Source: an uncultured virus (IMG/VR IMGVR_UViG_3300008255_000127) (Duplodnaviria; Heunggongvirae; Uroviricota; Caudoviricetes). Taken from it: a stretch of DNA of 64,000 bases. The DNA is taken from the IMG/VR virus record IMGVR_UViG_3300008255_000127. One strand, given 5' to 3'. The notes under the pieces are model-generated. The model worked only from the letters and a program-made list of their open reading frames with translations. It was not told the DNA's origin and made no database searches. Both the position numbers and the translations under genes were made by a program. Positions 13,654-63,214 of this stretch are shown here, piece by piece. The number at the start of each line of letters is the position of its first letter. The stretch's first letter is position 1.

Positions 13654-14238
13654 TCAGGTCCACCCCATATCCTTCGCGATCTCGGCGAGCATCCTGCGCT
13701 GCGGGTTGCTCCTCTTCCAGCGGTCGAAGGCGGTCCGAAGGAAGGGACGGGCGGGGATCTGGATCACGACGACGCCTGCAGGCCCGGACGACCCGCGGCG
13801 GCGCTTGCGCCGGCCTCGCTCGCGCGAGAAGAGCGCCCCCAGGAACTTCCGCATCTTCGGGGTGATCGGGATCACGAACGGCTGGGTGCCGTACTCGTGG
13901 ATCTCGGCGATGCGGACCAGCTTGTCGCCGGCCTTCCGCGGGACGCCGACGAAGGCCCGGTCGCCGCGGGCCACCACCGAGATCGAGTTGCGCAGCTCGC
14001 CGCTGCGGATCAGGGGCTTGCCACCTCGAAAACCGCTTAGCCGGCGTGCGGCCCGCGTGAGGGGCGACAGCGGCTCGAACTCCTTGGACCCCTTTCGAAG
14101 CCCAACGACGATCTCTCGGCGCAGACGCTGCGCCTCCCGGCGCACAGCGAGGTTGATCGCCCGGTGCATGCGCGGCCCACCGCCGGCGCGGAGAACGCGA
14201 CGAGCCCGGTCCCACTGGCCTACGCGGCGCACAGCCAT
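13654..14238 (-). CDS. Neck / virion morphogenesis protein (Mu gpG-like)
   Basis: Basic protein with KPLIRSGELRNSI, IAEIHEYGT and IPARPFLR motifs. Confidence 0.8.
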   Translation of the reverse strand: MAVRRVGQWDRARRVLRAGGGPRMHRAINLAVRREAQRLRREIVVGLRKGSKEFEPLSPLTRAARRLSGFRGGKPLIRSGELRNSISVVARGDRAFVGVPRKAGDKLVRIAEIHEYGTQPFVIPITPKMRKFLGALFSRERGRRKRRRGSSGPAGVVVIQIPARPFLRTAFDRWKRSNPQRRMLAEIAKDMGWT

Positions 14239-14258
14239 CAGGTCGTCCCCCGGGCGCG

Positions 14259-14765
14259 CTAACCCTGCGGTCGCGGCGCCAGCTTGAGGCACAGCAGGTT
14301 GCGGTGCGGGTTGGCCAGGGCCAGGGCGAACCCCTCGGGGCGCGCCTCGGTGACGTAGACGGGCTCGCGCGGCGTCATAACCACGGTGCCGTCCTCTCGA
14401 GAGATCGAGACGAGCCGGTCGCCGGCGCGGATCGCGGCCATGCCATCGGCGCCCACCAGCCCCTGGGCCTCGAGGTCGGCGAAGTGCAGGGTCAGCTCGA
14501 TGTCCGAGTCGGGCACGTTGCCCGCCTCCACCATCGCCAGCCCCTCGAACGCCTTATCGTCGATCTGCGCCGGCAGCCGGATGTTCGGGTCCAGCTCTCG
14601 CCGGATCGGGACGCCGGCGTCGGCGGCCCCCTCGAGGGCGGGCTCGTCGTAGAGGGTGTCGTACCCCTTGGTCGCCGGCCCGGGCGGATCGACCGCCTCG
14701 ATGCCGGCCGGGTCCAGACGGGCCAGTTCCACCACGAAGGGGCAGATCAGGAAGCCTCGAAACAC
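14259..14765 (-). CDS. Head closure / head-tail joining protein (putative)
   Basis: 168 aa beta-rich ORF in the neck position of the operon. Confidence 0.55.
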   Translation of the reverse strand: MFRGFLICPFVVELARLDPAGIEAVDPPGPATKGYDTLYDEPALEGAADAGVPIRRELDPNIRLPAQIDDKAFEGLAMVEAGNVPDSDIELTLHFADLEAQGLVGADGMAAIRAGDRLVSISREDGTVVMTPREPVYVTEARPEGFALALANPHRNLLCLKLAPRPQG

Positions 14766-14766
14766 G

Positions 14767-15786
14767 TCACACGCTCGCGATGCCGGATCGGCGGTAGCGC
14801 TTGATGATCAGGTCCACCTCGGCGTTGCCGGTGAACGGCGCGTCGCTCGCGGGGCGCTGCGCCCAGGCCGCGCTCTGCGTCTTGGTGCGGATCGAGATGA
14901 GCTGCCCGGCGCCACCTCCACCACCGCCACCGCCGGCGAGCGCGGTCGCGATCGGGGTGCGCCGGCCAGCCACCAGCATGATGCAGGCACGCTTGATCGG
15001 GAGCGGGACTCGCCCGAAGGCAGATCCGTCGGCCTCGGTGTAGCCGAAGACCCCGGTCACCACGATGTTCTGCTCGCCCTTCGGCCAGCGCTGGGCGTCG
15101 GTCGCCTCCGGGTCCCATCGGAACCCAGGCGCGTCCTCGAAGCGCGTCCCCTCCATCGGGCCGCCCTCGACGAGGATCATGTCGGCCGGGTCGTAGGTCG
15201 TGTCGCCCACCGAGATCGAGTCGATGCGGAGAGGGGGGGCCGGGGTGTAGAGCCGGAGGGTGCCGGTGCCGTCCAGCCGGAGCGTGCGCATCCGGGGCTC
15301 GAACCACCACCGGCAGTAGCTGTCGAGGTCGCGGCTGGCCTCCTCGATCATCTCGCGCAGGCGGGCGTCGCTGACCATCGCCACGGTGAGCCACTCCGCC
15401 CGGCAGTCCTCGACGGTGCAGTAGCCGCGCAGCCGGTCTGCGCGGGCGGCCACCGCATCGCCCACCGAGAAATCCTCGGTGAAGGAGGACTCGGGGTCGC
15501 CATCCTCGGCGACGAAGAACCAGCGGATCTCGTGCGGGCCGAGGGCCTCGTCGTCGGGCACCAGCCAGTCGGCGACGTAGTGGCCGACCTCGAGGGCGTC
15601 TGCGTCGAGGTCGACCGCGGCCCGGCCGGCGACCGGGTAGGTCTGCACGTCGGGGCCGCCGTCGGGCGTGCTCCAGATCTCGAACTCGAGGGTGAAGGGG
15701 GCGAAGGGGATGCCGGAGCGCTCGAGGTAGACATCGAGGGTCGGATTCTCGAACGAGCTGGACTCCCCCCTGTTGATCTGGACCAC
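14767..15786 (-). CDS. Head-tail connector/adaptor with N-terminal Ig-like extension
   Basis: Motifs YCTVED…ASRDLDSYC..WF, LDG.G, NIVVTG.FGY and VP.PIKRAC are typical of adaptors. Confidence 0.75.
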   Translation of the reverse strand: MVQINRGESSSFENPTLDVYLERSGIPFAPFTLEFEIWSTPDGGPDVQTYPVAGRAAVDLDADALEVGHYVADWLVPDDEALGPHEIRWFFVAEDGDPESSFTEDFSVGDAVAARADRLRGYCTVEDCRAEWLTVAMVSDARLREMIEEASRDLDSYCRWWFEPRMRTLRLDGTGTLRLYTPAPPLRIDSISVGDTTYDPADMILVEGGPMEGTRFEDAPGFRWDPEATDAQRWPKGEQNIVVTGVFGYTEADGSAFGRVPLPIKRACIMLVAGRRTPIATALAGGGGGGGGAGQLISIRTKTQSAAWAQRPASDAPFTGNAEVDLIIKRYRRSGIASV

Positions 15787-15844
15787 GAGGCACCTCGCTC
15801 GGTTGGCGCGGACTCAGGATAGCAGAGCCCGGCGAGGTGTGGGA

Positions 15845-16240
15845 TCAGGAGGTGGGGCTGGCCTTCTTCGTCGAGCGCCGGCGGCTGCGACCGCTGCTCT
15901 TCGGCTTCGCCGGGGCCGGGGCCGGGGCCGGGGCCGGGGCCTCGACCGGGGCCGCCTTCGCCGCGCGGGTCGCCCGGGGCCGGGGCGGGACCGGCTTCGG
16001 CTTGTCGTCGATCACCTCGATTTCGAACATGCGCGGGCCGCGGGTCACCGGCTGTCGCTTCTCGCGGAGGATCGCGGCCAGATCGGCGGAGACCTCGCGC
16101 GACTGCCCCTGCGTGAAGGGGTGGGCCTTGCGGCGCGACCGGGGCTTCGCGCCATCGGGCCTGGGCTCGAAGACGGTGATCGTCTGCGTCGGGTAGTCCT
16201 TCGCCGGACCCTCGACCATCGTGGCGATGTACTTGGGCAT
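15845..16240 (-). CDS. Small basic protein with Pro-Ala repeat, downstream of the capsid gene
   Basis: Begins MPKYIATM, has (PA)n and an Arg/Lys-rich tail. Confidence 0.55.
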   Translation of the reverse strand: MPKYIATMVEGPAKDYPTQTITVFEPRPDGAKPRSRRKAHPFTQGQSREVSADLAAILREKRQPVTRGPRMFEIEVIDDKPKPVPPRPRATRAAKAAPVEAPAPAPAPAPAKPKSSGRSRRRSTKKASPTS

Positions 16241-16345
16241 GGAGCTGCTCCAGGGCTGGGTGGTCTGCCCCCGGGGAATCCCCCGGGGGTCACACAGCAT
16301 CGTCGCTCAGAACGGACGCCGGATCAAGCGTCCGGCGAATCAGGA

Positions 16346-17290
16346 TCAGGCGAAGCCCTGGTTGAGGACGTTGTCGCCCACGACCACCGCGTTGGGGTCG
16401 GAGAACTTCACGTCCATCCGGCAGGTGATCACGATGCTGATGTAGCCGGCCCGGACGTTGCGGTCGACCTCGAAGCGGATGTTCCGCCAGAAGCCCACCA
16501 CGATGTTCTTCGGCACGGTCAGCAGCACCTTGGTCTCGTCCTCGCCCACCCCCAGGTCCTCGGGCCAGAGGCCGATCGGGGTGATGAGGGTGCCGTGGTG
16601 CTTGATCGAGGTCGCGTCCGACTGCTGCTTGTCGGCGGCGTCGGTCTCGCGGTCCTCGAACAGCAGGCGGAAGTCCTCCTCGGCGTTGTCCGAGGTGAGG
16701 AACTCCATCTTGCTCTTGAGCCGGCGGTAGGGCTTGGGGATCGCCCGGTGCATCAGGGTGAGGTTCTGCCGGTTCACCCGGTCGCCGCCGAAGTCGACCA
16801 CGTGGAGCGTCGCCTGCTTGAGGATGCCGTCCAGCGTGGCGAGGTAGTCGTCGGCCGAGTCGACGTCGCCGTTGATGACCAGCTCCTCGAGATCCGCCGA
16901 CACCCGCTCGCGGGCCATCGCCGTCACCAGGGCGGGGAAGGTGCCGCGCTGGATGTTGTCCTCGACGATCTCGTCGGGGATGCGGATCTCGCCCTTCAGG
17001 AGCTGCGCGTCCAACTCCACGAAGCCGAAGTCCGGGTTGGACCGATCGGCCTCGTTGTTCAGGGCGGTCGCCGAGGTGCCGCGTCGCATGATCCGGCTGT
17101 TCAGCCCGATGCGGGGGATGCGCTGCTTGGGCGCGTCCATCGGGGTGACGGTGACCTTCTTCATCAGGTCACTCGACTGGATCATCTCCTTGATGAACTG
17201 CTTGGCCTTCGCCGGCTCGAGCAGCCCGCCACCGTCGCGGATCTCGTCGAGGGCGAGGTCGGCCTTCTGGATGAGCTGCCGATTCGACAT
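16346..17290 (-). CDS. Major capsid protein (HK97 fold)
   Basis: 314 aa. Motifs GGLL.P..A..FI, EDNI, DLEELVINGD and DGILKQA. Follows the scaffold and protease genes. Confidence 0.92.
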   Translation of the reverse strand: MSNRQLIQKADLALDEIRDGGGLLEPAKAKQFIKEMIQSSDLMKKVTVTPMDAPKQRIPRIGLNSRIMRRGTSATALNNEADRSNPDFGFVELDAQLLKGEIRIPDEIVEDNIQRGTFPALVTAMARERVSADLEELVINGDVDSADDYLATLDGILKQATLHVVDFGGDRVNRQNLTLMHRAIPKPYRRLKSKMEFLTSDNAEEDFRLLFEDRETDAADKQQSDATSIKHHGTLITPIGLWPEDLGVGEDETKVLLTVPKNIVVGFWRNIRFEVDRNVRAGYISIVITCRMDVKFSDPNAVVVGDNVLNQGFA

Positions 17291-17377
17291 CGCTCTGTAC
17301 CTCTCCTGCTGTGAGCCGACCGCTGCCGGCCGTTGTAGCCTACTACGCCACCGAGGTCTTCACCAGCGCTTGCTGGA

Positions 17378-18310
17378 TCAGCCCTTCTCGGGCGCGTTCA
17401 GATCCGAGGGCCAGTCCACGTCGACCCCCTTGCGAGCGTTCGCGCGGGCGCCCCCACCGGAGCCCCCGGTCGACGGCGCGACCGGCACCGCCTCCATCTT
17501 CGTCACGCGGGCCTGCAGCTCGCCGAGGGCTTTGCCCACCGCGTCCTTGGCCTGGGTCTCGAGCAGCCGGTCGAGCTTCTCGTCGAGCGCGCCGAGCTTC
17601 TCGAGCACCATCGCCCAGCGGTCACCCTCGGTGCCCGCGGGCGCCTCTTCGCCGCCCTCGCCCTCGGGCGCACCGGGATCGCCGCCCATGCCGGGCTCGT
17701 CATCGGGGGCCTTGCGCGCCTCGGCGATCAGCTCGGCCTGCTTGGTCAGGATCGAGCGCTCGATGGGCGCGAACGGGTCGGAGCCGCCCGCCGACTTCAT
17801 CAGCCGGACCACCCCCGCCGACTCGCGCATGCTGTAGATCAGCGTCCAGACGGAGTCGAGGTGGTCCATCGCGGCCTTGAAGTCGACGTCCTCACCGTCG
17901 ATGGACGCGAGCACCTTGTCGACGGTGGCCTTGAGCGCGGCGGCCTGCTCGTTGAGCAGCGCCATGTGCGCCGGCGCAGCCTTGTCGGCCTCGGCCCCAT
18001 CCTCGCCGGCGTCGCCCTGCTCCTCGTCTTCGGGCGAGGCGGGCTCATCGGCCCCACCGCCACCGGCCGGAGGCTCGGCCTTCTCGCCCTCGGCCTGGGC
18101 CTGCTCGCCGTCCTTCGGGGGCTCGGCGCTGGCCTTCTCGCCTTCGGCCTGGGCCTGCTCGCCGTCCTTGGTGTCCTCGGCGGCCTTCTCGCCGTCGGCC
18201 TGCTGCTCGTCGCGCTTGGTGATCACGAACTTCTCTCCGTTGGCGGCGCGGTCGACCGCGCTGACCTCGTCGATTTCGAACTCGTCCAGGCGGTGCTGCG
18301 GGTCAGGCAT
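17378..18310 (-). CDS. Capsid scaffolding protein
   Basis: N-terminal EVSAVDRAAN..KF.I.KR motif, acidic low-complexity and coiled-coil body. Directly upstream of the capsid gene. Confidence 0.75.
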   Translation of the reverse strand: MPDPQHRLDEFEIDEVSAVDRAANGEKFVITKRDEQQADGEKAAEDTKDGEQAQAEGEKASAEPPKDGEQAQAEGEKAEPPAGGGGADEPASPEDEEQGDAGEDGAEADKAAPAHMALLNEQAAALKATVDKVLASIDGEDVDFKAAMDHLDSVWTLIYSMRESAGVVRLMKSAGGSDPFAPIERSILTKQAELIAEARKAPDDEPGMGGDPGAPEGEGGEEAPAGTEGDRWAMVLEKLGALDEKLDRLLETQAKDAVGKALGELQARVTKMEAVPVAPSTGGSGGGARANARKGVDVDWPSDLNAPEKG

Positions 18311-20186
18311 CGGGGGCCTCCTTCACCGGGGTCTTCCGGGCCGTGCCGCCGATGGAGAAGCCGGTCCACTTCCCAGCCTTGATCTCCTGCCAGAGCTTCT
18401 CGCTCTTGACGAGCCAGCCCATCAGCCACGTCCCCTTCTTGATCTCGCGCCCGCCGACGGTGAAGTCCACCGGGGCGAGGTAGCTCTCGACGAGGACGAC
18501 CTGCTCGTGGAGGCGCATCTTGTGCTGGAGGCCGAGCCGCCCGCTCCCGTTCGAGAAGCTGGCCATGTAGCCGAAGGCGGCCTTTCGGATCGCGTCCTCG
18601 TCGTAGATGTCGCCCTGGGTGTCGGTCTCCTCCGGCTTGAGCACGATGCCGAGAACGTACTGCTCGTCCGCGGCCTTGGCACAGGGTAGCACGACCCCGT
18701 CGGCGCCGTTGACGATGGTGTCGATCTTGATCTCGACCCGGTCGCGCTTCGCCGCCGGCGCCGAGAGGCTGTAGACGGTCCGGCCCTCGGAGGTCCAGAC
18801 CTCGATCGTCTTGACCACCGAGGTGCCAGACGGCACCGCCCCATCCCACTCGGACCCGGCCTCGATGTACTGGATCGTCGCGTGCGGGGTGAAGCCGTCC
18901 TTGTGGGTCTCGGCCTCGATGCCCTCCGACTGCAGCTCCAGCTCGATCGCCCGGCGCAGGGCCTGGACGCCGTCGCCGGCGACCTTGGCGTAGGCGACGC
19001 TGTGCTCGTCGCCGTGGAAGTGCCCCAGCCCGCCGATCTGCACCTCGAACTGCTGGACATTGGCGGCGGCCCGCTCGATGGCGGCCTTGATCTTCGGGAC
19101 CTCGGCGGCCTTCGGATCGCTCTGGAACAGCACGGTGACGTGCGGAGGCATGCGATCGCCGGGCGCGACGTCGGGCTCGTTGGACCTGGGGAACTGCCCC
19201 TTGAGCGCGCCGCGGATCGGGATGATCGCGCAGACGGACCCGGCCTCCACCTTGTCGAGATCCGCGTCGGTCTTCTCGGTCCAGACGCCGACCTCGTACC
19301 CCTCCGAGCGGAAGATCTCGTCGACCGCGGCGGCGGCCTTGAAGGTCGCGTCGAAGTTGGTCACCACCAGGGTCGGCAGCACCTTCGGCCCGGCCACGCC
19401 TCGCATCGTTCGGATGCTGCGGGGCGGGGTGATCGTGCGGACGCTGAAGCCCTCGTGTCCCTTCACCATCGCGGGGAGCTTGCCCCGGATGCCGTAGGTC
19501 AGCACGAACTTCCCCTTGAGCGCCTTGAGGCGCGCGAAGAAGCGCTCCTCGTCGAACTCGCTCTCGTGGACCGCGGCGTTGTAGCCGGCGTAGGGCGGGT
19601 CGAGGAAATGGAAGGTCTCGCGGCTGTCCGCGTCGACCATCACCCGCTCGTAGTCACCCTGGTAGAGATGGGCGTTGGCCAGCCGGGGAGCGAAGCGCTC
19701 GGCGCGCTCGGCCATCTTCCCGGTCTTCCCCTCCGATCCAGGGTCGAAGGACCGCTTCCGCATCGAGCCGTAGCTGAAGCGCGCGACGTAGAGGAAGCGG
19801 TGCAGCTTGGCCAGGGCCGTCGTCGGCCGGCTGTCGTAGACCTTGTGGAAGGTCGTCTTGCGGCCGGTCCAGTCCATCGCCTTGAGACGGGCGAAGTCGC
19901 TCGGGCGCATGCCCTTGAGGATCTTGAGCGCCTCGGCGATGTCGGTCGCGTAGTCGTTGAGCCACGCCTCGGGCGTGACGTCGCGGCCCTCGCAGAAGGT
20001 CCAGAAGACCGAGCCGGCCCCGAAGAACGGCTCGCAGTACTTGGTGACGCCCTCGGGGATCATCGCAACGAGGCGCTTCGCCAGACGAGCCTTGCCCGCC
20101 GGGGAACCCCAAATCGCCACCTTGGCGATCTGCACCTCGTGAGCCGCCTCGAGGGCGAGGTCTTCGATGAGCCCCGGCCCGAACAT
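18303..20186 (-). CDS. Fusion of Dam-like N6-adenine DNA methyltransferase, 2H phosphoesterase and XkdF-like prohead serine protease
   Basis: MTase motifs GSPAGK, YCEPFFGAGSV and FLDPPY. Two HxT motifs (PPHVTV, TPHATI). C-terminal VLGIVL.PE.TD.QGD…QH…VESYLAP…GTW…W..IK.G.WTGFSIGG. Confidence 0.88.
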   Translation of the reverse strand: MFGPGLIEDLALEAAHEVQIAKVAIWGSPAGKARLAKRLVAMIPEGVTKYCEPFFGAGSVFWTFCEGRDVTPEAWLNDYATDIAEALKILKGMRPSDFARLKAMDWTGRKTTFHKVYDSRPTTALAKLHRFLYVARFSYGSMRKRSFDPGSEGKTGKMAERAERFAPRLANAHLYQGDYERVMVDADSRETFHFLDPPYAGYNAAVHESEFDEERFFARLKALKGKFVLTYGIRGKLPAMVKGHEGFSVRTITPPRSIRTMRGVAGPKVLPTLVVTNFDATFKAAAAVDEIFRSEGYEVGVWTEKTDADLDKVEAGSVCAIIPIRGALKGQFPRSNEPDVAPGDRMPPHVTVLFQSDPKAAEVPKIKAAIERAAANVQQFEVQIGGLGHFHGDEHSVAYAKVAGDGVQALRRAIELELQSEGIEAETHKDGFTPHATIQYIEAGSEWDGAVPSGTSVVKTIEVWTSEGRTVYSLSAPAAKRDRVEIKIDTIVNGADGVVLPCAKAADEQYVLGIVLKPEETDTQGDIYDEDAIRKAAFGYMASFSNGSGRLGLQHKMRLHEQVVLVESYLAPVDFTVGGREIKKGTWLMGWLVKSEKLWQEIKAGKWTGFSIGGTARKTPVKEAPDA

Positions 20187-20503
20187 CAGTCGTTGATGTC
20201 GAGCGGCCAGGGCATGGTCGCCGCCTTGGAGGTCTTCGACTTCTCGCCGTCCATGCCCTCCTCGTCCTCGGGCTTCTCGCCGTCGGCGCCGGCCGCGCCA
20301 CCGCCCGCACCGCCGGTGGCCTTCTCCTCGGCCTCCTCACCCTTGGCGCCGGCGTCGGCCGGATCGCCCTTCTCGGGCTCGGCCTTCTCGGGCACCAGCG
20401 CCTTCGCCGCGTCGGCGAGCTGCGTCGCGAGGTCCGTCTTGGCGGCCTCGTCCATCTGCTTGGCGGCGTCGACGATGCCGTCGATCACGTGCTTGAAGCT
20501 CAT
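20186..20503 (-). CDS. Small acidic head-module protein
   Basis: 105 aa with a GGAGG RBS. Ends WPLDIND, resembling the scaffold C-terminus. Confidence 0.65.
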   Translation of the reverse strand: MSFKHVIDGIVDAAKQMDEAAKTDLATQLADAAKALVPEKAEPEKGDPADAGAKGEEAEEKATGGAGGGAAGADGEKPEDEEGMDGEKSKTSKAATMPWPLDIND

Positions 20504-20580
20504 CTCGTAGACCTCCTCGCGGTGAGGGTAGCAGATTGGGGCGTCTGCGACGCCACCATCTTGTCGTCTCTCGCCTCAGA

Positions 20581-21642
20581 CTACAACACGGGAACGGTCG
20601 TCGTCCTGCACAGCCCGTGGTATGGCGGCAGTCCGATCCCGAGCGAGCCAAGGTCGGGGGCTGATCGCAGCCCCTTGAACTTGCCGATCTCATCTGCGCG
20701 CCCGACGGCGGAGTCTACCACCGTCCCGACCGAGATGCGCTCCGCGCCGCGCTTCACCCACATCTCGGTCGTGCCGTCTTCGTTCTTCGACTCGCGCACC
20801 CAGGGCGCCGCGTCCTTGATCTCCTCCGGCGCGGTCAGTCGCTCGGCGTCGGCGAACGCCTGGAGCCCCGCTCCGACGGAGAACTCGGTGCCGTGGATCG
20901 ACCGGCAGAAGTTGGTCGTCACCTCGTCGAGCACCGCCTCGATGCGGTACTTCTCGACGCCGGCCTCGGCGTAGCCGGAGACCTGGGCGAACGACCTGCC
21001 GCGGGTCGTGAAGGCCGCAGCGACCACCTCCCAATAGAAGCCTGAGCGGGCCGCCAGATCCTTGGTCGCCGCAGCCTGCAGCCGGCCAGCGATGTCGGCC
21101 CGGCCGAGGCCCAGCTCGACCCCGTCGGCGACGATCCCGCGCGCGGAGGCGCCGAAGGCGTCGATCCGGCGCCCGTACTCGTCGGTCACGTAGAGGACGT
21201 GGCTGTCGCGGAGGTGCTCGACGATCCGCTCGTCGACGCTGTTGAAGTCGGCCCCGATGGTCAGGCCGGCCCGGCGCACGTCGGCGCGCCCAGCTTCGAC
21301 CACATCTCGAGCCCGAGGAACGACGACCTCCTCGTGTCGGACGGGGATCACGGCCGTCGCGCGCCCGGCTGCCACGAGCGCGTCGTTGACCAGGGCGCTC
21401 CGCTGGGCAGCCGTCGTCGCCTGCCAGTCCACGTCGAGCACCTTGAGCGCCTCGGCCACCGCGTCGCGCTCCGGCTCGGCGGCGCGCCGGCGCAGGGCGC
21501 TGGCGAAGCTGGCCACGGCGCGATCGAAGCCTGCCTTCGAGCCGAGGTTGATCGCCTTGGCGACTGCGTGGACGCCACAGCACCCGGCCAGGATCTCGCC
21601 GGCTGCGTCGGCCCCGGCGCTGACCACGTCGAAGCGGATCAC
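20581..21642 (-). CDS. MuF-like head morphogenesis (minor capsid) protein
   Basis: Motifs AVLDEVTTNFCRSIHG and PPYHGLCRTT. Probable GTG start overlapping the upstream stop. Confidence 0.88.
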   Translation of the reverse strand: MIRFDVVSAGADAAGEILAGCCGVHAVAKAINLGSKAGFDRAVASFASALRRRAAEPERDAVAEALKVLDVDWQATTAAQRSALVNDALVAAGRATAVIPVRHEEVVVPRARDVVEAGRADVRRAGLTIGADFNSVDERIVEHLRDSHVLYVTDEYGRRIDAFGASARGIVADGVELGLGRADIAGRLQAAATKDLAARSGFYWEVVAAAFTTRGRSFAQVSGYAEAGVEKYRIEAVLDEVTTNFCRSIHGTEFSVGAGLQAFADAERLTAPEEIKDAAPWVRESKNEDGTTEMWVKRGAERISVGTVVDSAVGRADEIGKFKGLRSAPDLGSLGIGLPPYHGLCRTTTVPVL

Positions 21643-21878
21643 GACGCAGCCCCTGGGATCTCGACGCCGCGGACGCTGATGTCGCTCCCGCACCGAACGC
21701 ACCCGGCGTTGATGGTCGCCTTGCCGCCCTCCTCCTTGGCCTTCCTGGCCATGTTCCTCCAGCCGCACTTCGGGCAGCGAAGGAAGTAGGCGACCAGCGG
21801 CATCGCCGCCGGCCGGGGAGATCGCATGCCCTCCCCCGGCTCGAGGCACTCGATGCAGTCGTGGCCGACCAGCTTCAC
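21639..21878 (-). CDS. Small Cys-rich (zinc-ribbon) protein
   Basis: Contains CIEC, CPKC and CVRC. Coupled on both sides by 4-nt overlaps. Confidence 0.6.
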   Translation of the reverse strand: MKLVGHDCIECLEPGEGMRSPRPAAMPLVAYFLRCPKCGWRNMARKAKEEGGKATINAGCVRCGSDISVRGVEIPGAAS

Positions 21879-23686
21879 TCGCCCGCCCCCTCCCCCGTCG
21901 GCTTGAACCACGATCGGAACTCGCCGGCGGGGACCTGCAGGGTGATCTCGTCGAGGTCGCCGCCGAGCTGCTGCTGGCGCGCGAGCGCCATCCGGCGGTC
22001 GGCGAGCTGGGCCTTCGCCCGGTCCAGGCGGGACTTCACCTCGAGCATCCGGCGCGCCTCCTGATCGACGTCCACCTCGTCTGAGTCGCCGGCGCCCGGC
22101 GCCATGTCGTTCTGAATGCCGGCCAGGGTGAGCGCGATCGGCTGGTCCATCCAGGGGCGGTTGATCGGCGGCAGCCGGCGGTTGAATGCGTCCTCAATGA
22201 TCGCCCGGCCATCGCGCGGGGTGATCGTCCCGGCCACGACCTGCTCCTTGACCACCTTCGAGAGCCGCTCGGGGTCGCGGGTCACCGGGGTCAGCGACCG
22301 GAAGATGTAGAAGGAGCAGCCGATCGACGGCATGACCCGGCGGTTGATGTAGAAGTCGAAGTCGTCGCGCTCGGGCGCGAAGACCTGATCCTCGCTCAGC
22401 CGGATCGCCGCGTCGGCGGTCGCCCGGTTGAAGTCTCGGGTGTCGCCTCGCATCAGTCGTGGAAGCCGGAACTGCCCGCCGGCCTTGTCGGTGCCGCGCT
22501 CGTCGTAGTTGAGGAAGAGGGCGTCCTTCTGGATCGCGTCGGTCAGCGGCTTCAGTTCGACCCGCATCGCGGTGCCGCTCTTGCCGTCCGACTCGGCCTC
22601 GATCACGAGAATCTTGTGGAAGTTGTCGACCCCCTTGATGTTCTCTTCGATGTGCTTCTTGATCCGCTCCTCGCCGCCGTCGGCCAGGGTGCCGCCCGAG
22701 ACGAGCAGTGCCATCGGGGGGATGCTCTTGTTGTCGAAGAAGAGCAGGTTGACCTTCGCGGCCTTGTAGAGCCCCATCACGTCGGGCAGGGCGCCGATCC
22801 ACCGCGGGACGCCGTAGGGCGTGTCGGGGGCCTCGATCTTGAAATGGACGTACTCGTTGGCGGGCTGGACGCCCTCCTCATCGCGGGCCAGATCCTCGGG
22901 GCTGAAGTAGTAGCGCCCGGTCCTCGGCGACATTACCCGCGGGTCGCCGAACTCCTTGAGGTAGACCTCCTCGGTCGTCCCATCCTCGATGTAGACGACG
23001 CGCCGGCAGCGCTTCGGCAGCGAGGTCTTCGTGACGTGGATCTGGCTGGTCCGCTCCCAATCGTCGACCATCGTGAAGTCGTCGTCGAGCGGCATGAGCT
23101 GGCAGAGGTGGGGCGGGACCAGCTTGAAGCGCGAGGGCTCGCCGCGCCGGTTGCGCAGCACCTCCCAGAAGGCGTTGCCGGTCCCCTCGAGATGCCGGCG
23201 AGTCTCGCGACGCAGCCCGGCGAAGCTCTGCCCGGGCTCGTAGGCGCAGTTGGCGAAGAACGCCTCGGCGCGCGCCTTCTCGATCCGGGCCTTGCGCCGG
23301 ATCGCCTCGACCTCCGCATCCAAGGCATCGCCCTCGGGGAAGGCGGGCTCGATGCCGGAGGTCAGCAGCAGGTTGGCGAAGACCGCCTCGGCGACTTCGT
23401 CCTTCGCGCCCTCGGCCCGCAGGTCGATCGCCGGCTCGAGCCGGTGCCCGAAGCCGTCGATGTTGTTCGCGTAGGCGTCGATGTTCGGGCGGAGCGTGTG
23501 GCTGTCCTCGACCCAGCGGAAGAGGACGGCCATGTCGTAGGGCGGCGGGATGGAACCGACGTTGGCGAACGGCCCCTGGCTCTCGCCACCGCCGACGGTC
23601 TTCGGCTTGCTCAGACCGATCGACCGGACCTTGACGACGGCGGTCTTCGTGCCGTCTGCCTCGTTGATGACCTCCGCGGCGCTCAA
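21875..23686 (-). CDS. Portal protein (PBSX-like)
   Basis: Motifs GNAFWEVLRN, VHFK…YGVPRW, N..FFDN..IP and FNRATA. Probable TTG start at 23686 with a GGAGG RBS. Confidence 0.92.
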   Translation of the reverse strand: MSAAEVINEADGTKTAVVKVRSIGLSKPKTVGGGESQGPFANVGSIPPPYDMAVLFRWVEDSHTLRPNIDAYANNIDGFGHRLEPAIDLRAEGAKDEVAEAVFANLLLTSGIEPAFPEGDALDAEVEAIRRKARIEKARAEAFFANCAYEPGQSFAGLRRETRRHLEGTGNAFWEVLRNRRGEPSRFKLVPPHLCQLMPLDDDFTMVDDWERTSQIHVTKTSLPKRCRRVVYIEDGTTEEVYLKEFGDPRVMSPRTGRYYFSPEDLARDEEGVQPANEYVHFKIEAPDTPYGVPRWIGALPDVMGLYKAAKVNLLFFDNKSIPPMALLVSGGTLADGGEERIKKHIEENIKGVDNFHKILVIEAESDGKSGTAMRVELKPLTDAIQKDALFLNYDERGTDKAGGQFRLPRLMRGDTRDFNRATADAAIRLSEDQVFAPERDDFDFYINRRVMPSIGCSFYIFRSLTPVTRDPERLSKVVKEQVVAGTITPRDGRAIIEDAFNRRLPPINRPWMDQPIALTLAGIQNDMAPGAGDSDEVDVDQEARRMLEVKSRLDRAKAQLADRRMALARQQQLGGDLDEITLQVPAGEFRSWFKPTGEGAGE

Positions 23687-23886
23687 CGGCCGACCTCCAC
23701 GTAGACGATCAGCCCGCGCGCGCCATGCGAGATGCTTCGGATGGCGGCCCCGCCCCTCTCCAGCCGAGCCCGGGCGGCGGCGCGCAGGTCGTCCTGCGTG
23801 CGACCCTCGACCTCGAAGGTCCGCTCGGACTTCCGGGCCTGCTTCGTGCGCTTGCTGACCATGAAGATTTCGACGGTCGCCTTCAT
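23683..23886 (-). CDS. Small hypothetical protein
   Basis: 67 aa, translationally coupled between terminase and portal. Confidence 0.6.
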   Translation of the reverse strand: MKATVEIFMVSKRTKQARKSERTFEVEGRTQDDLRAAARARLERGGAAIRSISHGARGLIVYVEVGR

Positions 23887-25379
23887 CCGAACACCCTGAC
23901 CCGCACGCGCCCTCGGCTCGGCGGCGCGGGCTCCTCCTGGCAGGCGAGGGCCACCGACCAGAACATATCGGCGTGGCCACCCTCGGTTCTACCGGCATCG
24001 TACCGCACATTGCCGGATGCCGTGACCTGCTTGCGCACGGCGTGGATCTGCGCGGCCAGCCGGCGGCGGCGCGGCAGGAGCACTCGGCGCTCCTGCATGA
24101 GCGTCTTGAGGCGGATGGCCCAGCGCTCCTTGCTCGCCAGGGTGAAGGTCTCGGGCCGAACGATCAACGGGAACTCCTCCACCAGTTCCTCGGAGAGTTG
24201 GAGGCCCATGCCCGTGCTGTCGATGGAGAGGCGAGCGAGCGGCAGCGTTTTCAGCAGCCGGCGGAGGTACTCGCGCTGCTTGCGGAAGGCCGTGCGAGCC
24301 ATCTCAACCTGCAGGCGTGTGAAGTAGTGCCCGCCGATGCTCTCCATGACCGTGACCGAGGTGAGGTCGCGCTTCCGGCCGATGTCGACCCCGGCGACCA
24401 GCCGGCCGATCGGCTTGGGCACCATCTCGGGCTCCTCGGCCACGAGGATGTGCTCCCGAGTCAGCGGCTCGCCGGGCTCGGGCTCGTCGAGCATGCAGGA
24501 GAGGATCAGGTCGTAGGGCAGGAAGGCGGTGCTCTCGTCGATGAAGACGCACTCGAACTCCTGCTGGAACGCCTCGACCCCGAGGGCCTCGAGCTGGTCT
24601 TGGATCGCCTCCGTGCCGAACCGGGCCACACGCTCGTGGGTCGGCATCCGGTTGACCTCGAGGCTCGCCCGCAGGATGTCGTGGCAGAACTGCTCGCAGA
24701 GCCACCAGGGGTAGCTGAACCGGCTGAACTTCCGATGACGCCCGCCCTCTCGCGACGAGATCTCCCAGAACTTCCCCCGCTTGCCGAGCGGCGTGCTGCA
24801 GATCGTGAGCTGCCCGCCGGACCGCGCGATCAGCGCCGTCGCGCCGCGGTAGATCTCCTCGTCGTTCGGGCAGTGCGCGAACTCGTCGAGGTAGCAGTCG
24901 CCGTCCTTGCCGCGCGGGGCCTTCGCCGGCAGCGAGATCATCCGGCTCTGGTGCCGGCGCCCGCCGGTCCTCGGCTCGAACGCCAGCTCGGTCTTCGTGT
25001 CCACCGCGAGCCGCTTCTGGTAGGCCAGCGGCAGATCCTCGTGGACCGCGCGCGCCTCGTGGATGATCTCCTTGGCGTCGGCGAGGTTGTAGGAGACGTA
25101 GACCGCCTTGTGGCGCTCGCGGAGGTGGCATCGGGCCAGCCCCTCGAGCGAGCACATGAAGCTGAAGCCGATCCGCCGGCTCTTGTTGGCGTGGCGGAAC
25201 CGGGGCCGCCGGCCGTCGCCCTTGGTGAAGTCGAGGAACTCGCGCTGGAACGCCTCGAGCTGCAGCTCGTCGTCGGCGTACCGGCCGAACGCCTCGAGGA
25301 AGCCCGCCTCGGTCGCGATCCAGTCGTTGAACTCCTGCTCGTCACGCCGGACGATGATCTGAGGCGAAGCGTGGCTCAT
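23883..25379 (-). CDS. terL: Terminase large subunit (Mu gp28-like)
   Basis: Walker A-like KSRRIGFS, Walker B YLDEFAH, CSTPLG, FQQEFEC, nuclease GVDIGRKRD and C-terminal HAD.FWS.ALA. Confidence 0.95.
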   Translation of the reverse strand: MSHASPQIIVRRDEQEFNDWIATEAGFLEAFGRYADDELQLEAFQREFLDFTKGDGRRPRFRHANKSRRIGFSFMCSLEGLARCHLRERHKAVYVSYNLADAKEIIHEARAVHEDLPLAYQKRLAVDTKTELAFEPRTGGRRHQSRMISLPAKAPRGKDGDCYLDEFAHCPNDEEIYRGATALIARSGGQLTICSTPLGKRGKFWEISSREGGRHRKFSRFSYPWWLCEQFCHDILRASLEVNRMPTHERVARFGTEAIQDQLEALGVEAFQQEFECVFIDESTAFLPYDLILSCMLDEPEPGEPLTREHILVAEEPEMVPKPIGRLVAGVDIGRKRDLTSVTVMESIGGHYFTRLQVEMARTAFRKQREYLRRLLKTLPLARLSIDSTGMGLQLSEELVEEFPLIVRPETFTLASKERWAIRLKTLMQERRVLLPRRRRLAAQIHAVRKQVTASGNVRYDAGRTEGGHADMFWSVALACQEEPAPPSRGRVRVRVFG

Positions 25380-25444
25380 GCCGCTATCATCGCGATCTGG
25401 ACCGCCTGTTGCAAGACGGGCCGGCCGGTATGGAGGGGACCCCC

Positions 25445-26035
25445 ATGTACGAGCACCTCACCCCCGGCGTTAGCATCGCCGCCCGGACCCTCATGGTCAC
25501 CCGCGAGATCCAGGCGCGCGGCTACTCGATCCGCGGTGGCACCCACCCCACCCGGTCGATGACGAACCCGATCACCAGGGTGATCACCCTCCGGGCCGGG
25601 ATGCTCGAGCCGGGCTCGAGCAGCGACGTGGATCTGCTCGCGCTGCTCGCGCACGAGGGCCACCACGTGGAACAGCAGGCCGGCCGGCTCGTCAAGCGGA
25701 TGTGGTGGGGGACCCGCTACCTCGTCTTCGGCGTCCTCGGCGCGCTGATGATGCTCGCCGGCGCCCCCCTGGCCTTCGCCTCCCCCTGGATGCTCCTGCT
25801 GCTGCCGGCCGGACTCGGGCTCGCGCTCTGGTCCAACAGCTTCCGCCTCGCGGTCGAGATCGAGGCCGAGGCGATGGAGCTGGCCACCCGTCGAGCGGCC
25901 GGCCAGACCAGAGCCAAGCCCAGCCACAAGCTCGGCGGCTTCCGGCTGCCCTACCTCATCCTTCGGAACCCGAAGCGCATCGACGCCGAGATCGAGGCCG
26001 GCGCCGACGAGCTGATCAGCATGGCAGGTCGCTGA
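25445..26035 (+). CDS. Membrane-anchored HExxH zinc metallopeptidase-like protein
   Basis: GGAGGGG RBS. LLAHEGHHVEQ, then two hydrophobic segments and E.EA. Oriented opposite to its neighbours. Confidence 0.6.
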   Translation: MYEHLTPGVSIAARTLMVTREIQARGYSIRGGTHPTRSMTNPITRVITLRAGMLEPGSSSDVDLLALLAHEGHHVEQQAGRLVKRMWWGTRYLVFGVLGALMMLAGAPLAFASPWMLLLLPAGLGLALWSNSFRLAVEIEAEAMELATRRAAGQTRAKPSHKLGGFRLPYLILRNPKRIDAEIEAGADELISMAGR

Positions 26036-28651: not shown

Positions 28652-29523
28652 TTACGCGGACTTACGCTCTGTCGCGCGCGGCCTCGGACGGACGGACATG
28701 ATCAGCTCGGCCACCGGGCCTCGCCCCTGGCCGTTGCGGCTGATGTTGCGGCGCGCCTCCACCGTCTCGAGCGCCACCCCGTCGAGCCCGAACCAGATCT
28801 CGCGGGTCAGCGGGACGTCGGAGTTGTGCGCCACCGCGGTCACGTCGCGCCGAGCGCCGAGGCGCTGGACGAGCGCGCCGACCCGGCGCTGGTCCGGCTC
28901 GAGGAAGCGCGTGCCGTCGTAGCACGTGAAGCTCGACGTCTCGCTGCGCGGGACGTAGGGCGGGTCGAGGTAGACGAAGGCGCCCGAGCCAACATGCTCC
29001 TCGACCACCTCCTCGAAGTCGCCGGCGATGATCCGGCAGTCCTGCAGCACGCGGGCGCAGCGCAGGATGTTCTCGGCGTCGACCGTCCGGGGATTCTTGT
29101 ACCGCCCGAAGGCGACGTTGAACTTCCCGCTCGAGTTGAGGCGGTAGAGGCCGTTGAAGCACGTCCGGTTGAGCCAGAGCAGCCGGGCCGCGCGTTCCAC
29201 CGGCCCCTCGGGGTCGAGCTTGTCGAGGACGTGGTAGTAGGTCTCCTCGTCGTAGCTCCACCGCTCGGCCAGCCGGATCACCGCGTGCGGCGCGTCGCGG
29301 ACCATCTGCCACGCCTCCGCGAGCGCGTCGTGCGGTCGGCCAGGATCACCTCGCCGGTCAGCCGGCCGGCGGCGGCCAGGGCAAAGAAGATCGCCCCGCC
29401 ACCGATGAAGGGCTCGATGTAGATCGGCACCTCCGGCGGCGCGATCTGGAGGATGCGCTCTGCCATCCGGCGCTTGCCGCCGGCCCACTTCAGGAAGGGC
29501 CGGGCCTTGGTCTTCTCGATCAT
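28652..29523 (-). CDS. dam: Dam-family DNA adenine methyltransferase, one frameshift near 29331
   Basis: One frame has PFLKWAGGK and YIEPFIGGGA. The next frame has LNRTCFNGLYR.N..G.FNV.FG and VYLDPPY. A single missing base joins them. Confidence 0.9.
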
Positions 29524-60713: not shown

Positions 60714-61214
60714 TCACCCCTCGTCGATCTCGACCTCGTAGAGCACCCGGGCCTGGGTGACGTCGGGCGCCAGCCGGGTCTCCATCTCCACCCCCTCGGG
60801 CAGCACGATGATCGGGGCGCGCTGCCCGGGGCCGTCGAGGAAGTCGCGCACCACCTTCTCCAGCTCCGGGGCCAGCTCGGCGCCGGCCCTGACCGTGACC
60901 ATCGGCGGCAGGCAGGCCCGGACCGCGCAGTCCTTCATCTCGAGCACGAGCAGCCAGAAGGCGTCGTCGGCGACGTGCTTGCGGTCGAGGATGCGCTCGG
61001 CGTCCCCCACCTTCCCCATCGCGAAGGTGAGCTGCTGCTCGTCGAGCACCCGGCCGTCGGCGGCGAGGTCTTGGAGGTGGTCGAAGATCCTCTCGAGGAT
61101 CATCCTGGGGTGATCGTCGGAGAGGGCGGCCACGCAGATGGGCTCGCTGATCTCGCGCAACGGCGGCGGCAGGTGCTCGAAGGCGAAGTAGCGGTGGATG
61201 GTCGAGTCGCTCAC
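60714..61214 (-). CDS. Conserved phage helical-hairpin protein, possibly Acb2/Tad1-related
   Basis: Motif RYFAFEHLPPPLREISEP…LEMKDCAVRA. Confidence 0.5.
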   Translation of the reverse strand: MSDSTIHRYFAFEHLPPPLREISEPICVAALSDDHPRMILERIFDHLQDLAADGRVLDEQQLTFAMGKVGDAERILDRKHVADDAFWLLVLEMKDCAVRACLPPMVTVRAGAELAPELEKVVRDFLDGPGQRAPIIVLPEGVEMETRLAPDVTQARVLYEVEIDEG

Positions 61215-63214
61215 AGGTCATCGCTCCAGGGGTCGTCGTCCTCGTCGCCGTCTTCGACGACGCCCAGGCGGCGCAGGGCGACCTGGGGATCGACGGGCCG
61301 GCCGGCGGCGAGGCTCTCGGTGGTTGCGCCAACCGGGATCGGCTCGCGCTCGTCGGTGGGGGTGACGTCGATCACCCCGCTGTCGTCCTCCTCCACCAGC
61401 CCGATGGCGGCGGCGGCGGTCACGCGCCGGCGGGCGGCCACCTTCTTGTGGCGCTCGCGCAGGCCCTCGATGGTCAGGGTCAGCTTCACCTCGTCCCGGC
61501 CGCCGTCCCCGTTGGCGGCGGCCCCGAGCTTCTGCGCCAGCTCCACCCCCTGCTTCACGTCGTTGATCGAGTCGACCCGGATGTGGTTCGGCGCGGTGCG
61601 CGGGGCCATGAGCCCTTCGAGGTAGCGGTCGGCGAGCAGGTGCGCGATGCGGTCGACCTTCTCGTGGAGGGCGGCCCGGTCGGCGGCCCGCTCGTGGATG
61701 ACGTGCTGCGCCACGATGGCGTCCTCCTCCTGCTTCACCTCGGCGCGCCGGCGCTCGATGTCGTGCTTCTTGACGTACTGCTGGACGGTGCTCTTGGCGC
61801 AGCCGTAGCGCCGGGCGATCTCCTTGACGCCGGGGTAGCGGAACCGGCGGGCGCCGGCCTCGTCCACGTACTCCTCGCCGTAGACCAGCAGGTCGTGGAC
61901 CTCGGTCCACGGGATCACCGGGTCGCTCTTGCGCGGGCGGCCCGGGCCTCGCTTCCGCGGGTCCTCCGGCGCGGCCTGCGCGCTCTCGATGATGTCGCGC
62001 GGGGTCAGCCCGGGCGGCAGGTCCTCGGGGTTGATCTTCATCTCGGTGCAGGCGGCCAGGAAGATCTCGCGCTCGCGGTCGTCGAGCGGCGCGTCCGGGT
62101 CGACCTTCACCGCCGGCGGGGTCCGGCGGGTCGTCCGCTCGAACAGCCGGCGCGCCGTCTGGACCTGCAGGGTGCTCGGCGGCGGCGGCGGGTCCTCGCT
62201 GGGCAGCTCGTCGAGCAGCTCGTCGGCGAGGTCGGCCAGCCCCTCGTCCCCCCGGCGCACCCGGATGATGTCGAGCTGACCCTGGTTGGCGAAGTTGCAG
62301 CCGCCGGTCACCACGAAGGTCTCGCGCTCGCCGCGGACCACGAGGATCTTGGCGTGGCTCGGGCTCCACCGCAGGTGCGTCGGGATCAACCCCATCGCCG
62401 CGTGGTAGCCGTCGGCGTTCGAGGCCCGCCGGCCGAAGAGGCTGGGCAGCGCCACGTCCAGCCGGGTCACCCGGCCGTCGACCAGGGCGGCCCCGAGCAC
62501 ATGCACGTCTCCCCGGCCGAGCCTCCACGTCGAGGCGCGGACCGTGCAGACGCCGGCCAGATCGAGCAGCCCGTCGAGCAGCTCGCCCACCCCGGCCCGC
62601 TCGACGATCACGATCTGGTCGGGGTCCATGCTGGCGAGCTGGTGGACCGGCATCGCCCGGCTCGGCCGGTAGACCACCAGCCCCGGTCGCTCGAGCTGGT
62701 CGAGCGCCTCGCCGAGCCCCTGGTAGGCGGCGGCCCCATGGGGGTTGGCGCAGCCCGGTGGCACCCGATCGAAGACCGCGCCGAACACCTCCTCGAGGAT
62801 CGGCCCGAGGTCGTCGGTGGTCTCGTACTGCTCGGGCCGGTTGTTCCGGTTGAGGTTGGCCGAGGTCACGAAGGCGTGCTCACCATCGGCGCCGGCGATC
62901 CGGCCGGCCTTCGCGTGGACCCGGATGCAGCGCACGGCCTCGGCGCCGACCGCGTCCTCGATGTCATGGGCGTTCGACCGCTGCCCGTCCTTCGCGCGGC
63001 TCCTGATCTTCAGCGTGCCGGCGTCAAGGATCAGGCGCAGCTCGCCGATCACCCCGGTGCGCTTCGCCTCGGCCAGCCGGCGCACGTCCTTGACGCCGGC
63101 GGCGGTCACCATCAGGTCCACGTCGGCCGGCGCGCCCACCTCGTCGATGCGCTGCAGGATGTAGTCGGCGAGGTCGAGGTCCCCGCTCGTGATCCAGAGC
63201 CGCTCGTCAGCCAC
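61211..63214 (-). CDS. Tandem phospholipase-D-like domains fused to AT-hook and HTH (terminase small subunit-like C-terminus)
   Basis: VHAK…TSANLNRN and SHAK…GGCNF, then KRGPGRPRK and GVKEIARRYGCAKSTVQQY, then helical and coiled-coil segments. Confidence 0.7.
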   Translation of the reverse strand: MADERLWITSGDLDLADYILQRIDEVGAPADVDLMVTAAGVKDVRRLAEAKRTGVIGELRLILDAGTLKIRSRAKDGQRSNAHDIEDAVGAEAVRCIRVHAKAGRIAGADGEHAFVTSANLNRNNRPEQYETTDDLGPILEEVFGAVFDRVPPGCANPHGAAAYQGLGEALDQLERPGLVVYRPSRAMPVHQLASMDPDQIVIVERAGVGELLDGLLDLAGVCTVRASTWRLGRGDVHVLGAALVDGRVTRLDVALPSLFGRRASNADGYHAAMGLIPTHLRWSPSHAKILVVRGERETFVVTGGCNFANQGQLDIIRVRRGDEGLADLADELLDELPSEDPPPPPSTLQVQTARRLFERTTRRTPPAVKVDPDAPLDDREREIFLAACTEMKINPEDLPPGLTPRDIIESAQAAPEDPRKRGPGRPRKSDPVIPWTEVHDLLVYGEEYVDEAGARRFRYPGVKEIARRYGCAKSTVQQYVKKHDIERRRAEVKQEEDAIVAQHVIHERAADRAALHEKVDRIAHLLADRYLEGLMAPRTAPNHIRVDSINDVKQGVELAQKLGAAANGDGGRDEVKLTLTIEGLRERHKKVAARRRVTAAAAIGLVEEDDSGVIDVTPTDEREPIPVGATTESLAAGRPVDPQVALRRLGVVEDGDEDDDPWSDDL

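Follow-up and report, generated by a model that had tools for sequence, protein, structure and literature searches.

A predicted three-enzyme polyprotein in the prohead protease slot of an uncultured virus

Within a 64,000-nucleotide stretch of DNA from an uncultured virus (IMG/VR record IMGVR_UViG_3300008255_000127; the whole stretch is called the window below), a single minus-strand open reading frame (ORF), P0001, lies where a prohead protease gene would be expected and, judging from its sequence, encodes a genuine three-enzyme 'polyvalent' polyprotein of the head module, in which a predicted DNA methyltransferase (methylase, MTase), a 2H phosphoesterase and an XkdF-type protease follow one another. 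The reading frame is unbroken over all 627 amino acids (aa). Its parts are given below, with model confidence as the predicted local distance difference test (pLDDT) of an AlphaFold (AF2) structure that was modelled with a 27-sequence alignment and whose residues 1-18 correspond to aa 296-313.

18303..20186, minus strand: polyprotein ORF P0001, 627 aa, ATG start, stop codon included
20121..20186, minus strand: N-terminal leader, aa 1-22 (MFGPGLIEDLAL...IAK), with a similar leader in the nearest relative, L012
19338..20120, minus strand: predicted Dam-like D12 N6-adenine DNA methyltransferase domain, aa 23-283 (Pfam PF02086, 6e-15)
19242..19337, minus strand: methylase/2H linker, aa 284-315, with K283/A284 and K312/V313 (pLDDT <50 for aa 296-313)
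18753..19241, minus strand: predicted 2H phosphoesterase domain, aa 316-478 (Pfam PF13563, 2e-16; also PF02834)
18669..18752, minus strand: disordered linker, aa 479-506, with K504/A505 (pLDDT <50 for model residues 184-211)
18327..18668, minus strand: predicted XkdF-type prohead protease domain, aa 507-620 (Pfam PF14550, 6.9e-30)

The first-pass annotation had read these three domains from the letters of the sequence, and all of them proved real: P0001 has three Pfam domains, each above its gathering score, and the motifs lie where they had been placed. The MethyltransfD12 match (aa 31-208) reaches 56.1 bits against a cut-off of 22, and both the S-adenosylmethionine (SAM)-binding motif I (EPFFGAG, 52-58) and the catalytic motif IV (DPPY, 196-199) are present. 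In an alignment of 31 sequences W26, E52-P53-F54 and D196-P197-P198-Y199 are invariant, and the domain shares about 50% identity with methylase modules from a Myxococcota MTase-XkdF family; we conclude that it is a predicted D12-class N6-adenine DNA methyltransferase. The 2_5_RNA_ligase2 match (aa 343-440) scores 60.7 bits against a cut-off of 27, LigT_PEase matches too, and the motifs HVT (349-351) and HAT (435-437) have His and Thr invariant or nearly so across 27 sequences, in a domain that is modelled at pLDDT >90. Finally, Peptidase_S78_2/XkdF matches aa 504-618 at 104.1 bits (cut-off 24) over profile positions 8-124 of 126, with H555 in the motif GLQH and with GFSIGG at 609-614; D522, D526, H555, E567, W587 and S611 do not vary in the alignments of 27 and 31 sequences, and going by the family name we take H555 and S611 to be the putative catalytic residues. 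In the fold comparison by VIA-align, the T4 gp21 protease 5jbl was the best chain for the XkdF part (Z 7.3, 111 aligned, root-mean-square deviation (rmsd) 4.0; the next, a varicella-zoster virus (VZV) protease, reached 4.5), and for the model of a relative, P0152, it was the sole chain above Z 5 (Z 8.0; next 4.1). We predict from these models that the XkdF part is a serine protease domain of the T4-gp21/assemblin fold with conserved His and Ser.

A fusion of this kind could be produced by assembly or gene calling, and we compared public contigs with window positions 18100-20400. The point in favour of an artefact is that contigs from the likely source run (X1) are broken at 19537-19566, inside the methylase and beside an unrelated contig of high depth. 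This break does not fall at a domain border, and the assembly graph is tangled there by a conserved methylase stretch; the 30 nt of 19537-19566 also occur in another organism's contig, whose depth is about 190x. An independent metagenome from another study (X2) gave a single 18,451-base contig across window 18144-20378, covering the entire ORF, with 12 substitutions and two in-frame indels, a 3-nt deletion in the ORF and an insertion of 15 nt in the neighbouring scaffold gene; contig pieces from X3, a third study, run across the methylase/2H linker. The one RNA run compared with the stretch (X13) yielded nothing. A copy of P0001 that is 100% identical stands in a 37,978-base IMG/VR record (G001), and P0002 (626 aa), from another assembly, is 98% identical. 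The GC content at third codon positions (GC3) is also uniform at 0.95, as in real genes of this window of about 70% GC. The artefact reading was rejected on the X2 contig, the X3 pieces and the identical IMG/VR copy, and we give it next to no weight.

To place P0001 among its relatives, of which a word-indexed search found 406, we searched its three domains, cut apart, in 121 proteins (the query and the best 120), which gave the following architectures:

two methylases + XkdF: 62 of 121
one methylase + XkdF: 30 of 121
three methylases + XkdF: 25 of 121
three methylases, without XkdF: 2 of 121
methylase + 2H + XkdF: 2 of 121, namely the query and its 98% identical twin

Every methylase copy in these proteins has kept DPPY. 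Within this methylase lineage a 2H domain was present at 2 of 64 viral loci and at none of 80 genome loci (kept from a genome scan with 189 relatives). By source names and the genome scan the family is mostly Myxococcota, with seven titles of metagenome-assembled genomes naming other phyla, and cultured carriers include Myxococcus xanthus AM003, Corallococcus coralloides KYC2213 and Citreicoccus inhibens.

An exhaustive search with aa 296-627 recovered 5135 representatives at E<=1e-3, 2577 of them at E<=1e-10. Among the best 150 of the 5135, XkdF ends at most 40 aa from the C-terminus in 137 and is preceded by at least 100 aa in 133, frequencies that describe this XkdF subfamily and not all XkdF, since the ranking of representatives favours this subtype. 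A Pfam scan for cargo covered 105 of the 150 (42 shorter than 340 aa and three known MTase-XkdF members were omitted), comprising 40 picked for matching beyond XkdF or in two stretches and the 65 remaining long ones. Of the picked representatives, 36 of 40 have 2H together with XkdF; extra cargo comprises a C5 methylase with an ATP-dependent ligase in P0149, a SAM methylase with a ligase in P0182, and ChaB or DUF5824 in some 2H+XkdF proteins, and P0179 joins 2H, D12 methylase and XkdF in an order other than that of P0001. The other 65 carry D12 methylase (19), InPase (19), a ligase domain (4), Tad3 (3) or no other Pfam family (27). In P0156, P0218 and P0262 an InPase domain is followed by Tad3, a Type I Thoeris inhibitor, above its Pfam cut-off; these proteins thus place a named anti-defence domain on a capsid-protease anchor. 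Variable N-terminal cargo, which the first-pass annotation had thought worth looking for in XkdF homologues, is therefore the rule in this subfamily, and P0001 is a member of a very large class in which XkdF, at the C-terminus, anchors enzyme cargo that varies from protein to protein. The order methylase+2H+XkdF is a rare combination; the architecture class is common and the general idea has already been published. Labels of 'DNA methyltransferase' over XkdF in Lactococcus P335-type phages were also followed up and rejected, as these are ordinary XkdF-scaffold proteins, not methylase fusions; gp33 of Lactococcus phage 28201 carries the RefSeq annotation 'head maturation protease'.

The 2H+XkdF two-thirds and the methylase third of P0001 have different nearest relatives. 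For the former this is P0124, a 2H-XkdF protein of 321 aa with 62% identity and the same SNGSG insertion, and for the methylase it is the MTase-XkdF family, so that P0001 is a mosaic made by domain shuffling. In the nearest relative of the locus, L012 (76% identity), the homologous gene starts with the leader MDSGPGIAEDLAL, which resembles that of P0001, and keeps this leader and XkdF without a methylase; of its 2H only the first HxT is left, out of frame with the XkdF ORF (L012:851-1602, plus strand). The broken 2H is either true cargo decay or a contig error. The missing methylase and the 2H remnant mark the cargo as accessory and subject to rapid turnover.

What the 2H domain acts on was approached through its closest relatives. 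The first-pass annotation had pointed to Acb1, a nuclease that counters CBASS, in which antiphage signalling is based on cyclic oligonucleotides, and this comparison came out the other way. A profile search of the PDB with the 2H domain gave 5h7e (1.5e-14), 1iuh (2e-14) and 1vdx (4.8e-12), with weaker matches to Escherichia coli ThpR (5ldi, 4.7e-4) and to the poxvirus cyclic GMP-AMP (cGAMP) phosphodiesterase (PDE; 9bkq, 0.32), and no Acb1 chain at E<=1; Foldseek agrees with ThpR/LigT (5.5e-8 to 5h7e), and Acb1 is missing among the 47 Foldseek matches listed, which we do not count as evidence. In VIA-align, run against 48,161 chains, the Deinococcus 2',3'-cyclic phosphodiesterase (CPDase) 5h7f came out at Z 15.1 (rmsd 3.5, 158 aligned), with further ThpR-like chains at 14.6 (1vgj) and 14.0 (4qak), then 2d4g at 13.7, Usb1, AKAP18, rotavirus VP3 and mouse hepatitis virus (MHV) ns2 at 13.2-11.8, a Burkholderia phage PDE (9q2y) at 9.0 and the poxvirus cGAMP PDE at 8.7. 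Acb1 itself (7t27) reached Z 8.8 (125 aligned, rmsd 3.7) and ranked 18th, after the ThpR-like, Usb1, AKAP18 and viral PDE chains, and its Pfam family, PF23474, has no match in P0001 at E<=0.01. The best NCBIfam model is RNA 2',3'-cyclic phosphodiesterase (TIGR02258), at 33.9 bits against an equivalog cut-off of 65.7, indicating that the P0001 domain is related to ThpR/LigT and is no orthologue. By sequence and model it is predicted to be a bona fide 2H enzyme of a LigT-like branch, outside the Acb1 family.

These relationships leave the substrate to be weighed between readings to which we give about a third of our confidence each, both being kept since in this superfamily a substrate is not settled by neighbours in fold. 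According to the first, a tentative but serious possibility, the domain is a ThpR/LigT-like end healer, part of a carried repair kit, that opens 2',3'-cyclic phosphates, either on tRNA or mRNA cut by anticodon nucleases or toxins of the host or on nucleic-acid ends that have been damaged. Its nearest relatives in sequence and fold are indeed the ThpR/LigT CPDases, and ligase+2H+XkdF architectures occur among its relatives; set against this, no ligase partner was detected in P0001 or elsewhere in the window, Iyer et al. (2017; PMC5512222) state that 2H domains of the polyvalent type were never seen with RNA ligases, and the superfamily's indifference of fold to substrate weakens any argument from neighbours. 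The other reading, which we find somewhat unlikely, is an Acb1-like nuclease against CBASS or other cyclic-oligonucleotide signals. The fold and HxT/HxT tetrad are those used by Acb1 (PMC9117128), signal degradation was predicted for polyvalent-protein 2H domains by Iyer et al. (PMC5512222), the 2H-XkdF relative P0136 has a match to the Acb1 Pfam family that stays below threshold (1.6e-5; 25.1 bits, cut-off 27), and Tad3-like anti-Thoeris domains sit on the same XkdF anchor in other proteins. The profile and fold rankings given above all run counter to it, from the ThpR/LigT E-values of 1e-14 to 1e-11 to the Z-scores of 15.1, 14.6 and 14.0 for ThpR-like chains against 8.8 for 7t27 and 8.7 for the poxvirus PDE, as does the top NCBIfam model; the joining of 2H with ATP-dependent ligase domains in P0149 and P0182 points as much to nucleic-acid end repair. 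An anti-CBASS role is thus possible and not favoured.

The placing of the ORF in the protease slot, with the MuF gene on one side and scaffold and capsid genes on the other, was described correctly by the first-pass annotation, with exact coordinates and no strand. On the minus strand the order is terminase large subunit (TerL), portal, MuF/SPP1-gp7-like protein, a 105-aa acidic protein, P0001, a 310-aa scaffold-like protein and an HK97-fold capsid protein:

23883..25379, minus strand: terminase large subunit (Pfam Terminase_6C, Terminase_6N)
21875..24010, minus strand: portal protein (Pfam Phage_portal, 3.7e-12; PHROG 12)
20581..21849, minus strand: MuF/SPP1-gp7-like minor head protein (PHROG 13868, 1e-102; PHROG 115, 7e-8)
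20186..20503, minus strand: 105-aa acidic protein P0123, whose stop shares one base with the polyprotein ATG
17378..18310, minus strand: scaffold-like protein P0122, 310 aa, in an 8-nt overlap with the polyprotein end
18212..18295, minus strand: conserved N-terminal motif of the scaffold, aa 6-33 (HRLDEFEIDEVSAVDRAANGEKFVITKR), shared with related downstream genes
16346..17290, minus strand: HK97-fold major capsid protein P0271, 314 aa (Phage_capsid, 5e-9; PHROG 1623, 1.4e-79)
28652-29488, minus strand: second, stand-alone D12 methyltransferase, 23% identical to the fused methylase

The MuF-like gene has weak matches to NCBIfam phageSPP1_gp7 (35.3 bits, cut-off 39.65) and Pfam Phage_Mu_F (0.012), and its true start probably lies inside the called ORF; P0271 is also matched by NCBIfam major_cap_HK97. 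Tail tube, sheath-like, tape-measure and baseplate genes lie downstream of the capsid gene, and an integrase, the second D12 methylase, an exonuclease and an amidase upstream of the head genes. The stand-alone D12 ORF aligns with the Pfam profile only from position 56, and its true start may be elsewhere. This gene content indicates a contractile-tailed temperate phage or prophage; a megablast of window 14000-26000 against isolated phages gave no match.

Pfam and PHROG scans of the head module detected no protease family other than XkdF, and P0001 is the sole protease candidate in the head module of this contractile-tailed (pro)phage with Myxococcota relatives. This bears on the alternative that XkdF is here a mere capsid-targeting tag or an inactive relic, the head being matured by another phage or host protease. 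Model confidence is low at the segment with the catalytic Ser (pLDDT 49-67), and the literature searched contained no protease assay for any XkdF protein, both of which agree with a relic; the invariance of H555, S611, D522, D526 and E567 in 27-31 relatives and the lack of another protease family in the head module scans speak against it, and we regard it as quite improbable.

The scaffold-like P0122, which lies between the protease and capsid genes, is acidic, low-complexity and helical and matches no Pfam family. Its beginning is conserved: hRLxDxxVEEVSLVDRAANxxRFLIVKR stands at the start of 46 distinct viral ORFs, each just downstream of the polyprotein gene in a related locus and mostly in an ATGA overlap, which is explained by ordinary translational coupling (programmed frameshifting was considered). 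Twelve positions of this motif are invariant in a 27-sequence alignment, among them R7, L8, E15-V16-S17, V19-D20-R21, A23-N24 and K32. In four relatives (P0152, P0166, P0188 and P0241) the motif is fused in cis behind XkdF through a linker of 40-55 aa, and in PHROG 3017 positions 4-39 share a profile with XkdF; the scaffold N-terminus of the window matches these positions weakly (E 4e-4). By the Rosetta-stone argument, the cis fusions suggest that XkdF and the scaffold N-terminus work together, and with such a partnership anything joined to either would be enclosed.

Material also appears on either side of the gene boundary. A module of about 70 aa (INDLPDSAFL...RHFPV...PHLRNA), without a Pfam match at E<=1, lies within the polyprotein in some relatives and within the scaffold in L012 (L012:1595-2698, plus strand); further carriers are P0104, P0026, P0030 and P0109. 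In full the module reads W..A.INDLPDSAFL...GK T.PRSLRHFPV...G.LDLPHLRNA..RIPQ, and in some polyproteins it stands between methylase and XkdF. At the opposite end of the scaffold (window 17378-17420, minus strand) the sequence closes with ...VDWPSDLNAPEKG, and the acidic P0123 ends MPWPLDIND, giving a common motif WP(L/S)D(L/I)N; related scaffolds end WPLDLN.P.DR.SV.K..SFHD. This C-terminal motif may be a capsid- or portal-binding tag, as a candidate role on scaffold and P0123. The same two-gene layout of protease and scaffold is found in a cultured myovirus usable for experiments, Pseudomonas phage KIL5 (L069, KU130130.1 24112-25472), in which the gene for a 149-aa stand-alone XkdF overlaps by 4 nt with the next one, for a hypothetical protein of 304 aa; the KIL5 annotators put a promoter within the end of the protease gene.

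From this arrangement we propose that the polyprotein is built into the procapsid, cut there, and that methylase and 2H are ejected with the DNA at the next infection, a proposal drawn from sequence that we hold to be about evenly balanced. XkdF would dock on the conserved motif with which the scaffold, encoded by the overlapping next gene, begins (in some relatives both belong to a single polypeptide), and through this docking the whole polyprotein would be incorporated. Once activated in the procapsid, the protease would cut the linkers, possibly after Lys, and the folded methylase and 2H would stay trapped in the head until they exit with the DNA. In the newly infected cell the methylase would shield incoming DNA from restriction, as does DarB of phage P1, and the 2H would act ahead of any phage gene expression, either healing the 2',3'-cyclic-phosphate ends that host ribonucleases leave or destroying cyclic or 2'-5' oligonucleotide alarm signals, uses that are indistinguishable from sequence.

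The chief rival is a cytoplasmic late-enzyme polyprotein, in which the fusion couples enzyme synthesis to the late head genes or tethers the enzymes at the prohead, progeny DNA receives its modification from the methylase as it is packaged or earlier, and no enzyme enters the next cell. A methylase in the late structural operon would be made at the right time for progeny-DNA methylation, the tandem methylases of relatives suit anti-restriction by pre-methylation, and no capsid-binding motif was seen on the polyprotein. Methylation timing leaves unexplained why very different cargo (InPase, Tad3-like) sits on the same anchor, and the cargo modules shift between polyprotein and scaffold. Prohead proteases of this fold, such as HK97 gp4 and T4 gp21, act inside the procapsid, so that fused cargo should be enclosed, which counts against this rival as well; we think it unlikely, though it deserves to be weighed.

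Several observations weigh against packaging and ejection. A late-expressed methylase could work in the cytoplasm without being packaged, and the same phage encodes a second, stand-alone D12 methylase. AlphaFold leaves the scaffold motif at pLDDT 30-46 in the natural fusion P0152, P0001 is without the WPLDxN-type C-terminal motif of the scaffold and the acidic protein, and the protease-fold Z of 7-8 falls within a VIA-align range that may reflect a common arrangement. The frequency of the C-terminal anchor, as said above, belongs to a subfamily. Finally, there are 25 K-[AVSTG] dipeptides among the 627 aa of P0001, too many to mark cleavage sites; one such site per linker is what chance would give.

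This last point bears on the claim of the first-pass annotation that Lys sites at the domain borders indicate programmed processing. The sites exist (K22/V23, K283/A284, K312/V313 and K504/A505 are all present in P0001), and the programmed processing does not follow, P0001 alone having no excess over chance. Across the family, Lys is nearly invariant before each methylase module (VEK/T), after the methylase (K283) and before XkdF (LIK/G), and 17 of 24 relatives have K-[AVSTG] at most 12 residues before 2H, compared with a background rate of 0.31 per window; this comparison is of related sequences, and no probability is attached to it. LEK/ADLAL near residue 10 is common to about 50 related capsid proteins. 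Read at the level of the family, this Lys pattern fits a prohead protease with predicted specificity for Lys.

A more specific form of the packaging proposal is that XkdF and the EVSxVDRAAN hairpin of the scaffold form a two-gene hook able to load arbitrary enzymes, used here for a methylase and a 2H that destroys alarm signals as the DNA enters. We consider this form improbable as a whole; if true, it would be the first virion-delivered anti-signalling nuclease, active before any phage transcription.

Polyvalent proteins were defined by Iyer et al. (2017), and that paper (PMC5512222) puts at about 35% the share of phage proteins 'likely to be packaged in the capsid', names the N6A methylase as a hub domain, and predicts their 2H domains to be RNases or degraders of nucleotide signals. 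It also proposes, in silico, that packaged proteins with several enzymes are processed by an assemblin-like peptidase at their C-terminus, so that the mechanism put forward by the first-pass annotation is an already published hypothesis. P0001 resembles these proteins in having at least two unrelated enzyme domains in one phage polypeptide beside portal and terminase genes and an assemblin-like peptidase at the C-terminus (XkdF aa 507-620 of 627). It differs in that the 2H domains described there, in a purely computational study, are fused to MuF or portal domains, and whereas the assemblin-like peptidase class is there called 'rather limited in distribution', thousands of representatives were found here. 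DarB of P1 is likewise a head-carried DNA methylase that protects incoming DNA in cis (as summarised in PMC5512222), but it is a large methylase-SWI2/SNF2 fusion loaded via the Dar system, unfused to a protease and without 2H. Acb1 (Hobbs et al., 2022; PMC9117128) shares the 2H fold, the HxT/HxT catalytic tetrad and the phage origin, and differs in standing alone as a compact protein of about 150 aa whose C-terminus forms a lid. The ThpR/LigT enzymes (5h7e/5h7f, 1iuh, 1vdx/1vgj, 4qak/5ldi), the best profile and fold matches of the 2H, are in contrast cellular stand-alone enzymes.

Classical XkdF protease-scaffold proteins (PF14550, PHROG 3017) and T4 gp21 share with P0001 the protease domain, its His and Ser and the slot before scaffold and capsid. 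In classical XkdF proteins, however, little precedes the protease and the chain runs on into the scaffold, whereas P0001 has 500 aa of enzymes first and its scaffold is a separate, overlapping gene starting with the EVSxVDRAAN motif. Closer in layout are the actinophage 2H-XkdF proteins annotated as 'RNA ligase' (for example Arthrobacter phage Salgado gp18; PHROG 14859), in which 2H is followed by XkdF after the portal gene; these have only about 25% identity, are without a methylase and are annotated by name only. PMC5513430 mentions no virion mass spectrometry for them, and PMC4524720 reports virion mass spectrometry of Gordonia phages. On XkdF-anchored cargo the literature searched held genome annotations and Iyer et al. 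(2017), and no experimental work was found there.

If the cargo is packaged and ejected, a large phage group would bring ready-made counter-defence or repair enzymes into the cell, which would change how early infection and defence evasion are modelled. The class has thousands of representatives, yet no experimental study of it was found in the literature searched. The locus adds the rare, recently shuffled methylase+2H combination and a clear case of cargo shuffling, its nearest relative being without the methylase and having a decayed 2H. Relatives are prophages in cultivable Myxococcus and Corallococcus strains, so that virion proteomics is feasible. Together, the XkdF anchor and the scaffold motif could also be used to bring proteins into capsids, as a natural loading tag.

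Elsewhere in the window, a helix-turn-helix (HTH) protein resembling AbiEi antitoxins is encoded within the phage region (29520-30644, minus strand), and a 667-aa protein with a weak PLD-like match lies at 61211-63214 (minus strand).

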